The notes under the pieces: generated by a model
Seen by the model: only the letters and a program-made list of their open reading frames with translations
Told to the model about the DNA's origin: nothing
The model's database searches: none
In this document: piece after piece, positions 8,178-14,708 of the stretch
Layout: every line of letters begins with the position of its first letter
Position numbering within the stretch: the stretch's first letter is position 1
DNA from: Lingula anatina
Taxonomy: Eukaryota; Animalia; Brachiopoda
Reading direction: 5' to 3'
Assembly (NCBI GenBank): GCA_051362555.1
Contig: CM120645.1
Coordinates: forward strand, 7,502,001-7,566,000
DNA: 64,000 nt
Position numbers and translations under genes: made by a program

Positions 8178-9850
8178 TTTATTTGAAACAGTGCAAAGAT
8201 GTCGAGGCTTTTAAGGATAAATTTATTCCTTGTAATAAAACAGGTAAATTATTTCACCTTTCAAATAAGGAGAAAGCTGTGGCTAACGCTTCAGGCGAAT
8301 ACTTCATTTAAGTATCCTAATGTGGATTAATCCTTAATTGAAATAGATAACGGTTTGGCCGTAAAGTTTAGAACAGTTTACGAAAGACCTGTTGTTAAGG
8401 TCCACTAAATGCATGTGTTGAAATCACTCATTTACATATTATGTTTATACTTGTAATCAGTCAGCATATTATCATTCACCTTACTTCAGTCTTGAATGAA
8501 TATTTATCATCCTCTGTATAGGTATACCTGATAAGTAGAACTGATATAACTTAAAAGTAGAAGCCCTCAATTGTTATCTATTGCATTGCAATTAGTATTT
8601 AAATGAGTTGCTGCCACTGTGGCATGCAGATAGATTCTCGGGAGATAGTGTGTATAAAGGCTGAATGCTTGGACTTAATAAAGGACTTTTAGACTTGGAA
8701 CTGAATATGTGAGTCTGTGGTTATATTCCCTCTCCCATGCATCAGTGACAGGTAAAATATTAGAAGAACCTGCGTAGGGTGGAACATGGACCCCTACACT
8801 GTACATAATGCAGCAATAATCTTTTATTTTGATATTTGACAAATTATCATGCATACAATAAATGTCACCCGATGTTCTCTGTATTAACCAGCAATAAAAC
8901 TGCTGTTAATTTTGTACAATATGTTCATAAAAATTTTCCTAAGAACTCCTTTCCTTGTAAACCTGAAAATTCTACGTGAACAGTTTTCTTAAACGCGCCT
9001 TGTATAATTTATAACATGAAATAACGTTCTTTTATTTAATTAATAAACGAATACTGCAATCTTACAAATTGTAACACAATTACTAGAACATGGGATTGAG
9101 TGGCCATTCTATTGCAATCTACGGAAAGGTACATTAACTAGCAAAAATGAATTTTTCAAGGAAAATGCGATCGAAACTCATGCACTTGGTGGGTGGCGTA
9201 CCTTTATATCCAAAGTATATTCTATTAGTTATCCTATCAGTAACGGAAAACCACGCCCACCATCAGAGGGTTAAACTAAATGTAAGGCATCTGTCAAGAC
9301 ATTTTTGTCAGCAAGAAGCATGTCCGATTCTGAAAGCGTGCTTTTTTCACCCCCAAATGAATTTCAGTTTTTTTTTCCTATTTACCAGAGAGATTAAACC
9401 ATAAAGGAAAAATCAATAGCCTACATGGTTAGAAGGATTGGTCTGTCACTTCTCATTACTTGTTACCCCGCCTTCGAAGATATAATCATCAAATATGTCC
9501 CATATTGAAGATTTTATCTTAAATGCCAATCAAACCTTTTTCGGTATGTTTCTCCACGTAATTATGGTGATTTTAAAGGCATATTTTGGACATATGTTTT
9601 ACTTCATATATGTATCAGCACTTGACGTATTGTAATTCGAGATTTTCAACTACTGTAGCGCTGACATAGAATGCTACACGAATCCTCCCTCTAGTATCGT
9701 TGGATTTTTGGCACGTCAAAACCTGTTTCTGTTGCATCGCAAATGCCGATGATCAATTATTTACCTGAGTTTTATTAGCTTCGGAATACCAGTAATAGAG
9801 TTCCACTTACTGCTGATATGCTTCTCAAAAGGCACTTGGTATATTGGCAT
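2629..9850 (-). pseudogene. Decayed LRR/TIR-like (TLR-type) receptor remnant(s)
   Basis: Hand translation of the minus strand gives broken LRR-like phrases: VENLELQY and PKYAF (~9.57-9.66 kb), ESNISYLPRRV* (~7.33-7.36 kb), DITFLFHSLLNKLTK..LNMCQ..ISRIYPFA (ORF 5401-5673), STFQNISQLIEV/MSAN (~5.25-5.30 kb). A TIR-like VLPTKS..AMKNAKKLLVQSTAKWFLCRFCME lies in ORF 2629-3006. Many stops and frameshifts. Confidence 0.4.
8128..8176. repeat. (AAT)n microsatellite
   Basis: Directly visible. Others: poly-T ~1842-1869, (GA)n ~14711-14753, (ATCT)n ~37219-37261, (AAAC)n ~44953-44993. Confidence 0.95.
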
Positions 9851-10914
9851 ATGCCTAATGAGAAAAAAGGGAGCATAGCTTCTTTAAAGCGGGAGGGAGA
9901 GGGGGGCAGGCGGCAAAAAAGCAAAGGAATTAGGCTGGAGAAGAGGGGTCCCGTCCTTCAGTTTCAGTGAGGAAATGTGCTGAGCTAAAACGCAAATGAA
10001 TACCAAGAATATGCCATCTTCCAGTTTTCTCAACCAATCTTGAACGCAGAAGTAAACGGGGTTGAGGGGGTGAGGTGGCTTGGGGTTGGGGATGTGCATG
10101 TGTGTGTGTGGGGGGGGGGGGGGGGAGGGAGGGGGGGGGGCATCCGTTAGTATAAATGCACCGTAGATGGAGTTCCGAATGCCAAGCGTATCGCGAATTA
10201 TTTTCGAACTTATATCTCCTCCCACACCATGTGTTATTGTACTTCAACATCCCGTCTTCAGCGGCGGCTGTATGGTGGATACTTATTTAATAACTGAAAT
10301 TGCATGTACAATGTTAAGTGTTGATAAAAAGCATTTGTATGTAGCTAATATCACTTTTTAATACAAAAAAGTTTATGCTGTCGGTTAAATGTAAATGAAA
10401 CACGTGTCACTGTCAACAAGAGTCAAACTGTTGCGAAAAAGAATTTTGTTGCCAACCAAGTTCCAACAGTAAAATCACATTCTAGTGCGTGTTTTACAAC
10501 TGCGTCGACTCTTCATGAACGTCATGTACGCATGACTCAACATATAAAATAAAACAAAGCTCATTTTCATTTTCTTTTACTTATTCCCCTTTTCACCATC
10601 TCCATTTAAAGGTGTTATTCACGCTCTACTGAAGACATATTATTATACAAACATCTTATGTAGATTTTCATAAAAATAAAATAAAGCCACCAGCTTGCTT
10701 TCATTTTCCCTCTTAAATTTCATCACAAATAAGCAAACACTGGCATAGGAAGTAGTAAAACGACAATTATAAGTCACAACACTGCATCATTGGTCATAAG
10801 GCAATATAGTTTTTTCTCTTGTTCCTTTTTCCAAAACTTTTTTCAAAACAACCCCTTATAAGACACGTTAAAAGTTTAATGGCACTTTTCTGTGGTTCAT
10901 TTTTTGCTTGGAAG

Positions 10915-12381
10915 TCACTCGGCTGTGCCATTTCCCCCAGTGCCGGAACCGCGAGTAAAAAAACATCTCAATTTTTCCCACTTTCTGGTGGGCGTGGTCG
11001 GATGTGACGTCGACAGTTTCTGGTGTGACATCACTGTCAAAGTGAGCTGGTCAGCGTCATGCGTGAGGTCATACGTCTCCTGTTGCATCATCCCCTCCGT
11101 ACGAACGCCATTAATCGTGAGAATTTCGTCTCCGAGATTCAACCCAGTGTCTTTCGCGTACGCAGACAGTTTTACTACTCGCATTGGTTTCGTACGGTCG
11201 TTAGCGGCAGCCACTGTGATCCCAAATGACCGGCTTGCGTCCCTAAGTATTCTGACAGTTTTTAAATACAAGCTATTCATAAACTTTCTGGAATCGATCA
11301 AATCGCTGGGGGGCTCTGCTGAGGACGTAAGTATCTTTTTATAACACACGGCTGTGTGGCCGCAGAGGAGTCTTATCTCTCTCTCTAAAAGATCGATCTT
11401 TGCCGGTTGGAATTCGACCTGCACCGCGGCATCAATGGCTTTGACCGTCGATAAGTTGATAAGCCGATGGCGCATCTGCTGAATCTTCTGGGACAGCTCC
11501 TCAGGCGAATTGAAGTCCTGATAACTTAATCTCCTTGCCGCCTGGTAGGCATCGCTGCCCTCGGCGTTGTCGAGTTTCTCTTCGATATCATCTATTCGTC
11601 TCTCCCATTCCTCTAATTCTTTCGTGTGCGCGCACTCAATCTCCTGCATGAGGTCTTTTTCGATATCCTCTAGCGTTCTTTTCATGGTCTGAATCCGCTT
11701 CATTACCGACTTTGTCGCAGCGGTTATTGAGGTTTCCATAACCCGACTTGTTTCTAAATATCGATCTCGCAGTTCTTGCACATTTTCAACTTTGTCCCGT
11801 AGTTGTGTGCTCAGTTTATCAAATTCCGTCTTGAGGTCGTCCATTGCTTGCCGCTTTTTAAGACTGACAAAAACGTGCCCTATATGCGAATCAATACAGT
11901 CCGCACACAAACTGACCTGGCATTGGTGACAAAATAGGGTCAAGCGATCTTCATGGCCGCACGAGGCATACTGCCGCCCTCTACAGTTTGTTCGATAATA
12001 GGAATTATGACCACTATTATTGGTAACAACCGGTTTTGATAGGCCACGAGCGCTGGAATCATCACCTTTGTTTTCAGCTGATTTTTCAGAAATGCTCCTC
12101 CACACCATTCTCTCCTGTAGGCCCTGCACAGCGAAATTTGTGGCGAATTCCTCCACTCCGTTTCTGGGGTAGGGGGTCTCCTTTCTACACCATGGGCAAG
12201 GGAATCGCGTCAGGTGCTTTGGGGAGGATTTGTTTGACTGAATCCATTGTTCCAGACAGGTCTTGCAATATGTGTGTCCGCAGGGTAGAACCTTGGGTTG
12301 CTTGTAAATCTCCTGGCATATCGGGCACGCCAGTTCGTCTGGTGTTGTTTTACGAACCGGTCTTGAGCCAACGCCAGCCAT
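10915..12381 (-). CDS. TRIM-like E3 ligase: RING (C3HC4) + B-box2 + coiled coil + C-terminal PDZ; coding region intronless, 488 aa
   Basis: RING CPIC..CGHTYCKTC..CPWC followed by the TRIM-typical NFAVQGL; B-box CGH..CHQC..CADC..H..H; ~150 aa charged helical region; PDZ-like KTVRILRDASRSFGITV..AKDTGLNLGDEILTING..QLTLTV (~11030-11265). Uninterrupted ORF, richer in GC than its flanks. Confidence 0.9.
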   Translation of the reverse strand: MAGVGSRPVRKTTPDELACPICQEIYKQPKVLPCGHTYCKTCLEQWIQSNKSSPKHLTRFPCPWCRKETPYPRNGVEEFATNFAVQGLQERMVWRSISEKSAENKGDDSSARGLSKPVVTNNSGHNSYYRTNCRGRQYASCGHEDRLTLFCHQCQVSLCADCIDSHIGHVFVSLKKRQAMDDLKTEFDKLSTQLRDKVENVQELRDRYLETSRVMETSITAATKSVMKRIQTMKRTLEDIEKDLMQEIECAHTKELEEWERRIDDIEEKLDNAEGSDAYQAARRLSYQDFNSPEELSQKIQQMRHRLINLSTVKAIDAAVQVEFQPAKIDLLEREIRLLCGHTAVCYKKILTSSAEPPSDLIDSRKFMNSLYLKTVRILRDASRSFGITVAAANDRTKPMRVVKLSAYAKDTGLNLGDEILTINGVRTEGMMQQETYDLTHDADQLTLTVMSHQKLSTSHPTTPTRKWEKLRCFFTRGSGTGGNGTAE

Positions 12382-12975
12382 TGATACGGTATCTATACAC
12401 TGCGCAACTTTGCAAAATCAGCCCCGACATCTATCATTGCATTACGGGCAATGCTACTATTTGTGTCACTAAGCGCAGCAAATAGAAATGCTGAAATGCA
12501 GAAAATAGAATCTCTGATGTTCAGGTACTCGAAACGCGTTGTTGAGTGAGTGCAAGCCGGCGCAGCAACTGCTTGGAAACTAGGCTTTTATGCGGAGTAC
12601 GTTAATCTGATTCAGCGAATTTCTTTAGTCCAGGCTTCTAGCTAATGGCAATCATTCATGACAATAGCCAGGCGTGCACCGAGCACAGTGCAGATGTGTC
12701 GTACATGTGGTATTAGTATATGCTAATGTGCATATCAGCTGTTCTTTTAGTGTATTACTTACTGCTCACCGAGGAAATGTTCATTGTAAGTACTGGGTGT
12801 GACATCAACCAATTGAAGAAGCTACATGTATCTATGTTCATGGGCTTCGATGGTGATACGTTGTCCTTTGTAGCAAAGAAATCGGTTAAAAAACGTAAAA
12901 TGCACAAAGGTAAGTAATGTGCGGAGTCCGTTTACGTCGCTGCTAGTAGATCTTTCTTCATCCCGAGGCTATAGA

Positions 12976-14708
12976 TTAATCAAAATTAGGATGACTTACT
13001 TTCAATGTCTTATCACCCTCTCTTATGCATTTCAATGTAAAGCAGTGAAAGAGAAAGCAACGGCTGGCCAAGCCACCTGCTCTATGCATACAATGTTCCA
13101 GTGGTAAAATGCTGTGGCACTTCAAGTGTTTCCGATCACCTGCAAACACCTGTATAAAGTAGCTCCAATCAGGTGGCCCAGTGTGCACTCTATCCACACT
13201 ACCATGACCCTCTGAAATGCCACAGTCTTTTCTCTAAAGGCCATTGCGGTGTATACTTATTGCCGGTAGTCACGCTAACCATCCTAGGGCTATAAAATCC
13301 TGCGGTTTCAAGACAATAAACAATTACATGCGCAATCTTTGTGCAGTGCTTTGTTTCCTTCGAACTTCAGTGATGTCATTTTCCACTTAACTGGTGTATC
13401 CTGACGAGTTAATCTGTGGTACCTTTCGCTCGATGCCGCTCATACGTTTCGCAGATTTCAGTAAGACGGGTGATTAAGCGACATAACGGGCACGCACCTG
13501 TTTTCTATGGAATAAACAGTTGAATTATCGATTTCAGGCATGACTCGCTCTCTTAATAATTCTTTTTCTTTCTCTCGCAGTGAAGTCGCAATGAATCACT
13601 GAGAAAAATTACACTGTTGAGCTACGAAGCCTCTGTGAAGACACTAAGTATATGTTAAATGTGTCATATATCAAACGCAAATGACCGTCTTGGTACCGAT
13701 ACCATTACCATGAATAGCGCATAGTGGGTTCAATAGGTATTCTTCTTGCAAGCACCATCAATGAATGTAGATTATTTTCATGAAGCACATATCGCATCCT
13801 CTAAGATTTCCTTGAAACACTTGGCAGCTCTAAGACTACTTTAGATTATAACGCATTATTTTCCTCTATTACATTACATTTACATGGATTTTGCAGTTGG
13901 TCTGACACGGTCTTTGGCATCATTGGTATATTAGAATTTGTAGGCCTGTTTTTAAAATTGCCAATATTCCAATACCCAATTTATTTACTGAAAAATTTCT
14001 TTATCACTCTTTTCTTTGCCTCACTTCTTTGCTAGTGATACGTACAATCCCAGACCCCCGTTGGTGCCAACCAAGCTTTTGCCCAACAATGCAAGGACGT
14101 TTAAAGGTCAACCTCATTTCCAAGATTTACACAAACTGCATGATTATCCATTTTGTAATTTGCAGCCTATTACTCCTTTGAACCCCCATCTGTTAAATAG
14201 ATACCTGCTAAATTAATGGAGAATCCTTGTTTTCGCCAACTCTAATTTCCTAGATTCCCTTTCTTCAAAGAGCATTGGGTGACCCGATATTGGCATTCCA
14301 AAACGGAACACGTCTTCGCATAGAGCCCCCGTGGAGTCATTAATTCACAAAGGGCAAGCAGATAACTGCAGAAGAAAGCCTTATCCCTAACCTCTTATAC
14401 CTTTTCACATCAATTTCGCATTAATCAAGAAGCATCTAAAGATCGGGGTCAGACCTTTGGGAATATTCATCGCAACATTGACGTCTATAGGGGGGCAATC
14501 GTTTTTGTTTACGCTAAGATTCCCTGGAAACAATTTATTCAGTAATGACGGGCGACTAATGCATCTGTATCAATAAATGGTAATATATTCTTTAGCAATC
14601 CAATGTGTTCAACATTTTCAGACGTGTCTAACAAGCATGCGACTAATGCACATCTGTGAAAGAGCAGCCACGTTAATACTTTTGGGTGTAAGCACAACTC
14701 ATAGATAT

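Follow-up and report, generated by a model that had tools for sequence, protein, structure and literature searches.

A single-exon gene of Lingula anatina joins a TRIM RING, B-box and coiled coil to a PDZ domain

Can a TRIM protein end in a PDZ domain, and if so, what would such a protein do? The question is raised by a gene of the brachiopod Lingula anatina, and published schemes leave little room for it. Marin's 2012 TRIM classification has, in the text available, no PDZ class and no occurrence of the term PDZ (PMC3503706), and a 2024 review names eleven TRIM C-terminal classes, with PDZ not among them in the available text (PMC11674240). According to Flynn et al. 2011, the pairing of an N-terminal RING and C-terminal PDZ domains seems to be confined to LNX proteins; the same authors regard repeated origin as plausible and describe a separate, reversed PDZ-RING arrangement in arthropods (PMC3162930).

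The window analysed here is the whole 64-kb stretch of L. anatina DNA that contains the gene. Its open reading frame runs from 12381 to 10915 on the minus strand and encodes 488 amino acids plus a stop. Of the window's 10 ORFs with 120 or more amino acids, it alone exceeds 160, and the window is otherwise gene-poor. The features of the locus are as follows.

10400..13600, minus strand: approximate transcribed span (RNA reads)
12350..12442, minus strand: upstream ATGs, three in number, each beginning a short ORF; lengths 2, 14 and 26 codons (sequence)
10915..12381, minus strand: single-exon coding sequence, 488 aa, RING - B-box - coiled coil - PDZ (ORF and Pfam)
12187..12327, minus strand: C3HC4 RING of TRIM2/3/56 type, aa 19-65, with Arg66 after the last Cys (Pfam and structure matches)
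11875..11961, minus strand: single B-box, aa 141-169, with the B-box2 ligand pattern and a short first knuckle, C-x1-H
11566..11856, minus strand: long coiled-coil helix, about aa 176-272 (AF2, heptad test and profile match)
11326..11550, minus strand: short helices that follow the coiled coil, aa 278-352 (AF2, pLDDT mostly below 50)
11023..11271, minus strand: PDZ, aa 371-453, with loop R380...S385-F-G-I388 and alphaB residues Q433, Y437 and T440
10951..10986, minus strand: Cys-containing basic/aromatic tail motif, aa 466-477 (8/12 identical in the homologue)

The encoded protein is identical to XP_013388385.1 of L. anatina except at residue 52 (S52T); RNA reads show both letters at this residue (16/30 in run X5), so we treat the difference as allelic. 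RefSeq names the protein 'E3 ubiquitin-protein ligase TRIM13', and its precomputed domain list contains no PDZ, which may be why the RING-PDZ layout has gone unremarked. TRIM13 does share the RING, B-box and coiled coil, but as a class XI TRIM it ends in a transmembrane domain (PMC11674240, PMC3503706) that is absent from the Lingula protein: we find no transmembrane helix, the peak 19-residue hydropathy being 1.19 and lying inside the B-box, and the TRIM13 identity is rejected.

Reads from eight of nine listed RNA runs were aligned to the window. In runs X4 and X5 they span about 10,400-13,600, and the first mate lies on the plus strand almost throughout, which is what a usual stranded library should show for a minus-strand RNA. 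Read depth halves upstream of about 12548, and six molecule ends fall at 12548 in run X4 only, making this position a possible main 5' end of the transcript. No splice joint across the locus and no loose read end within the ORF occurs in any of the eight runs, which bears out the intron-free coding sequence proposed in the preliminary description. Depth at the join between coiled coil and PDZ is 55-65x in stranded reads of X4, with no joint or loose end, and 842 of the 982 reads aligned in that run are at least 99% identical, such reads covering the whole ORF. Expression is strongly sample-dependent: aligned reads per million are 103 (X4), 53 (X5) and 1.2 (X6) under a single study code, against 1.1-4.4 for the remaining five runs, three of which include repeat-derived reads, and the transcript is about 40 to 100-fold more abundant in two of the eight runs. 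Of the 5 coding variants listed (at least 5 in all), 3 are synonymous, and the PDZ contains none of the listed ones. Two alleles were also seen in X4 outside the coding sequence, a 12-base deletion in the 3' UTR at position 10,832 (30/95 reads) and a 2-base deletion upstream of the ORF at 12,970 (21/21 reads). The upstream ATGs lie within 61 bases of the start codon, and the third of their ORFs (26 codons) overlaps the main start out of frame and could damp translation.

The same fusion occurs in one other known protein. A word search of 5.8 billion proteins gave five matches among 7,997 candidates, namely the RefSeq record, three generic TRIMs and one full-length relative (P0003) of 441 amino acids, 43% identical and with the same domain layout, whose PDZ and B-box fall below the Pfam cut-offs (19.0 against 23.2 and 18.9 against 24.1 bits). 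Two further searches with the C-terminal part added no relatives. HMMER with a C-terminal profile returned 75 matches from 1.84 billion representatives, of which only the two homologues are strong; each of the other 73 owes its score to two or more stretches added together, none shows the pattern of a RING or B-box, and the 10 that were scanned with Pfam are PDZ proteins without a RING. These searches were keyed to this PDZ, and a TRIM joined to an unrelated PDZ would escape them. Protein searches also revealed no paralogue family or expansion.

Conservation between the two homologues, a single comparison of the two known sequences, follows the domains: identity is 51/80 (64%) in the PDZ, 34/55 (62%) in the RING, 19/37 in the B-box, 33/95 in the coiled coil and 9/53 in the linkers. 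The fusion is thus old enough that its linkers have drifted, and over that time the PDZ has been kept as strictly as the RING. That the gene is a chimera of the assembly, an accidental read-through or a functionless, decaying copy, as so small a set of relatives might suggest, is barely credible in view of the reads of at least 99% identity that cover the whole ORF, the three synonymous changes among the five coding variants listed, and an independent 441-aa protein that carries the same fusion, is 43% identical and is conserved domain by domain; homologue comparison and RNA reads together have already largely refuted it.

The N-terminal part of the protein is that of a TRIM. The RING (aa 19-65) scores 40.6 bits as zf-C3HC4 against a Pfam cut-off of 21, and both homologues keep all eight zinc ligands and the C-P-x-C-R motif. 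An Arg after the last RING Cys has a role in ubiquitin ligase activity. The best solved relatives of the RING are TRIM2, TRIM56 and TRIM3 (E 2e-15 to 2e-11), with LNX2 at rank 13 (E 3e-6) and LNX1 at rank 33 (E 7e-5), trailing TRIM2 by nine to eleven orders of magnitude in E-value, and its top Foldseek matches are the TRIM2 RING, TRIM2 E2~ubiquitin complexes included. The B-box match (aa 143-174) scores 26.7 bits against a cut-off of 24.1, and all eight ligands and the C-x1-H knuckle are present in both homologues. Its second ligand is His and hhalign pairs it with B-box2, the C-x1-H spacing being short; our own small B-box profiles split, giving 17.8 for B1 and 9.7 for B2 in P0001 and 6.8 and 8.6 in P0003. 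The coiled coil follows the B-box directly in protein order, as in TRIM (RBCC) proteins. AF2 places a helix at residues 160-272, with block pLDDT of 68-87 over residues 181-270, and RING, B-box and coiled coil together align with invertebrate TRIM-filamin-NHL proteins at a probability of 99.7 over 231 columns (hhalign). Weak PDB matches of the coiled-coil part (E 0.17-2, none individually significant) are TRIM chains in 9 of 11 cases. The short helices at residues 278-352 are, we presume from TRIM architecture, likely the TRIM fold-back region. A RING, B-box and coiled coil followed by a PDZ-like domain, as first described, is thus upheld by Pfam, the AF2 helix and the profile match, and it is reasonable to read the sequence as that of a putative E3 ligase which its PDZ would direct to targets.

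The C-terminal domain was expected to score and fold as a PDZ, and it does both. Its Pfam match (aa 377-451) reaches 24.6 bits against a cut-off of 23.2 and covers profile positions 3-81 of 81, rising to 26.9 bits when the last 179 amino acids are scanned alone. The leading PDB matches of the last 131 amino acids are all PDZ proteins, PALS1 first (E 2e-5). An AlphaFold2 model built from the two homologues and 32 selected PDZ domains (32 of the 73 search matches) has 73 of 119 residues at pLDDT of at least 90 and superposes on the syntenin-1 PDZ with a Z of 13.4 and an rmsd of 1.7 over 79 aligned residues. The best 50 structural matches are nearly tied (Z 12.4-13.4), and Foldseek is concordant. 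A full-length AF2 model from the two homologues alone has a mean pLDDT of 49 and an unfolded PDZ (pLDDT below 50), which we do not count against the domain because the deeper alignment folded it. PDZ proteins are matched by the Atlas model of the RefSeq record as well, 5 of 10 rows being PDZ-named on the aligned part. The Atlas feature search with the whole protein has RING/B-box clusters nearest (best score 0.76, a lead) and no PDZ family among the nearest clusters listed. Taken from the models, the C-terminal domain is a genuine PDZ fold.

It is the groove of this PDZ that sets it apart. The region reads RSFGI from residue 384 and GMMQQETYDL from residue 430, with GLNLGDEILTING between. The preliminary description had taken RSFGI as a departure from GLGF, a view that the comparison with 32 related PDZ domains does not sustain: the letters S, F, G and I occur in 16, 14, 31 and 7 of them and are ordinary. 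The carboxylate-binding loop has its R/K...X-Phi-G-Phi form (R380, S385-F-G-I388), with R or K at the R380 position in 28 of the 32 relatives and G387 in 31. The replacement of the alphaB His by Gln is real, Gln433 being present in both homologues and His in 22 of the 32 relatives. In class I PDZ domains the alphaB1 residue is His, which this domain lacks. Two further positions of helix alphaB are unusual, Tyr437, where 23 of the 32 relatives have Val, Ile or Leu and one has an aromatic residue, and Thr440, where 28 have Leu, Ile or Val. Gln433, Tyr437 and Thr440 are identical in both homologues, and so are 16 of the 20 groove-region positions, which surround strand betaB and helix alphaB, against 43% identity overall. 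The alignment with PALS1 places Tyr437 on Phe318 and Thr440 on Leu321. In PALS1, Phe318 blocks the empty groove and swings out upon binding Crumbs, Leu321 lines the pocket for the last ligand residue, and a C-terminal peptide is bound despite Phe318 (PMC4356366). The Lingula groove may be shallow or partly closed. PALS1/MPP5 is the best PDB sequence match and shares the aromatic at the groove-gating position, but it is only about 30% identical, has Leu where the Lingula protein has Thr, and gives no sign of a donor role. We also note that the best single-domain PDZ match (P0050, residues about 143-210; 42% over 55 aa) has Gln at alphaB1 and Thr at alphaB8, as in the Lingula protein, and is not grouped with it by the tree.

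These residues bear on what the protein binds. The suggestion that substrates are chosen by their C-terminal tails stands as far as the intact carboxylate loop goes, but Gln433, Tyr437 and Thr440 leave ordinary binding not assured. Because these alphaB residues are identical in both proteins, a fixed, non-class-I ligand seems likelier than fast-changing viral targets, which had also been put forward and find no support: the groove is 16/20 identical at 43% overall, and no paralogue family was found. A restriction factor that recognises PDZ-binding tails of viral or parasite proteins is accordingly an improbable account of the gene. Many TRIMs do act in innate immunity (PMC3503706), and expression differs about 40 to 85-fold within one study, which fits induction or tissue restriction equally; against this, the groove belongs to the best-conserved parts of the protein, not to the most variable, the PDZ holds none of the five coding variants listed, and the protein searches show no paralogue expansion.

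The tail that follows the PDZ raises another possibility. Its basic and aromatic residues and Cys are conserved at 8/12 positions against 9/53 in the flanking linkers, a rough P of 0.004 after allowing for 25 windows. We considered an amphipathic membrane helix and rejected it, keeping it as a weak idea: the hydrophobic moment ranks 54th of 478 windows in the Lingula protein, which is unremarkable, and 10th of 431 in the homologue. It is conceivable, if weakly so, that the basic-aromatic-Cys tail helps to hold the protein at a membrane. One might then suppose that the protein is a true ligase whose PDZ serves in localisation or assembly, through a lipid, an internal motif, another PDZ or its own tail, with substrates chosen elsewhere. 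PDZ domains that bind lipids, internal motifs and other PDZs are known (PMC4356366), the three alphaB residues of the groove all depart from the canonical ones and are the same in both homologues, and the tail is conserved; however, the carboxylate-binding loop and its upstream Arg are fully kept, and in the AF2 PDZ model the tail is unstructured and not docked on the domain (pLDDT 52-54). We consider this account somewhat doubtful.

Our preferred reading, which we hold to be probable if only somewhat so, is of an expressed single-exon TRIM with a PDZ, a ubiquitin ligase that would grip a conserved host partner through a non-class-I tail motif. TRIM dimers are antiparallel, with their C-terminal domains paired, and TRIM RINGs are activated when dimers cluster. 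Starting from the observed gene, transcript, domains, PDZ fold and conservation in one relative, and drawing on TRIM and LNX biology for the dimer, the binding and the ligase activity, we propose that the coiled coil would dimerise the protein and present two PDZ domains, that these would grip the partner by its tail motif, that the RINGs would be activated once dimers gather on a target that is itself clustered, for instance a junction scaffold or a membrane protein, and that the partner or its neighbours would be ubiquitinated, leading to endocytosis or degradation. LNX1 provides the example of a RING-PDZ protein able to ubiquitinate PDZ ligands (PMC3162930). A fuller version, which we offer tentatively, is that of a separate RING-to-PDZ ligase on a dimeric TRIM scaffold, with a bivalent Tyr-gated PDZ and a membrane-seeking tail, which would fire only on clustered membrane-protein tails and would form an undescribed TRIM C-terminal class long kept in a narrow lineage.

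By its domain layout, as read from the sequence, the protein is a TRIM and belongs neither to LNX/PDZRN nor, by its C-terminus, to class VII. Like LNX/PDZRN (LNX1-4) it has an N-terminal RING and a C-terminal PDZ, and the PDZ is likely to guide ubiquitination in the same manner (PMC3162930), but it carries a B-box and coiled coil between the two, has one PDZ where those proteins have two or four, possesses a RING far closer to TRIMs, and continues for only 35 amino acids past the PDZ, which leaves no room for the LNX3H region (150 aa) of LNX. Because the RING is of TRIM2/3/56 and not LNX type, this looks like a separate RING-to-PDZ fusion. By similarity ranks the RBCC part is closest to the TRIM-NHL group (class VII, or Marin subfamily C: TRIM2, TRIM3, TRIM32, TRIM56 and TRIM71), the RING and following helix matching TRIM2, TRIM56 and TRIM3 best. 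The relatives retrieved from the metagenome have two B-boxes against one here, and the group has a filamin/NHL C-terminus where the Lingula protein has a PDZ; neither filamin nor NHL appears among the best 25 Pfam families listed for the protein or the 3 for its last 179 amino acids. We infer that an RBCC from this group lost filamin/NHL and gained a PDZ.

A metagenome scan points to the same relatives. It gave 61 loci, all matching residues 1-275 only, and none with this PDZ (best tblastn E 4.3). At 24 of the 61, many of them near-copies from few contigs, the RING lies in an ORF of more than 700 amino acids, and the four loci scanned all have RING, two B-boxes and filamin, with NHL matches in two. 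Loci L001-L039 on these contigs are tandem single-ORF genes of about 720 amino acids with RING, two B-boxes, coiled coil and filamin (with or without NHL), and one 241-kb contig holds at least nine matches, some copies having short or broken ORFs.

The origin of the single exon can be viewed in this light. Lingula genes average 6.6 introns, by the available text of PMC4595640, and the absence of introns here may be inherited, because the nearest RBCC relatives retrieved, too, are single-ORF TRIM-filamin(-NHL) genes. Of the retroposed or shuffled origin first suggested, shuffling is supported; retroposition lacks a long A-tract or flanking direct repeat: no A-tract within 1 kb downstream exceeds 6 bases, and such repeats as occur are short and look like chance. 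The donor of the PDZ, which a phylogeny was expected to find, did not emerge: in a 34-row tree (the pair plus 32 of the 73 matches, PALS1 not included) the pair sits at the end of a long stem, 1.12 changes per column in length and with 100/99 support, and no sister to it is supported. Searches for a viral origin gave 102 pattern matches and those for a prokaryotic origin 63, none of which was confirmed.

A precedent is offered by the Branchiostoma subfamily C TRIM-MATH genes, in which one lineage acquired a new binding domain at the C-terminus and one of which is described as a short intronless ORF (PMC3503706). There, however, the domain is MATH and several genes occur in one species, whereas one TRIM-PDZ gene is known per source, kept over 43% identity. 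The pairing of TRIM and PDZ is apparently undescribed. A literature search, with subscription papers mostly beyond its reach, found no TRIM with a PDZ; the Lingula genome paper mentions neither PDZ nor tripartite in its main text and one supplement; and the available portions of PMC5549309, PMC8195603 and PMC11788884 hold nothing relevant to it. The gene is thus a counter-example, with transcript and homologue support, to RING-PDZ proteins being confined to LNX. Every part is a known module, swapped C-terminal domains are habitual in invertebrate TRIMs, and the family has two members so far. With its Gln/Tyr/Thr groove, specificity is unreadable from the usual PDZ classes, and as a small, single-exon, easily expressed protein it could test whether a TRIM scaffold turns weak PDZ-tail binding into avidity-dependent ubiquitination.

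Elsewhere in the window, twelve coding pieces for cysteine-rich, trypsin-inhibitor-like (TIL) domains were found by pattern on the minus strand between 20,430 and 61,300, and the three scanned all exceed the Pfam TIL cut-off. Most have a stop directly after the domain, so they look like small genes in tandem and not like a single long protein. In the copy at about 50,813 the pattern breaks off halfway, apparently by a frameshift. At about 8,270-8,800 lies a repeat element, with RNA reads in both orientations at 90-99% identity and loose ends at both borders.
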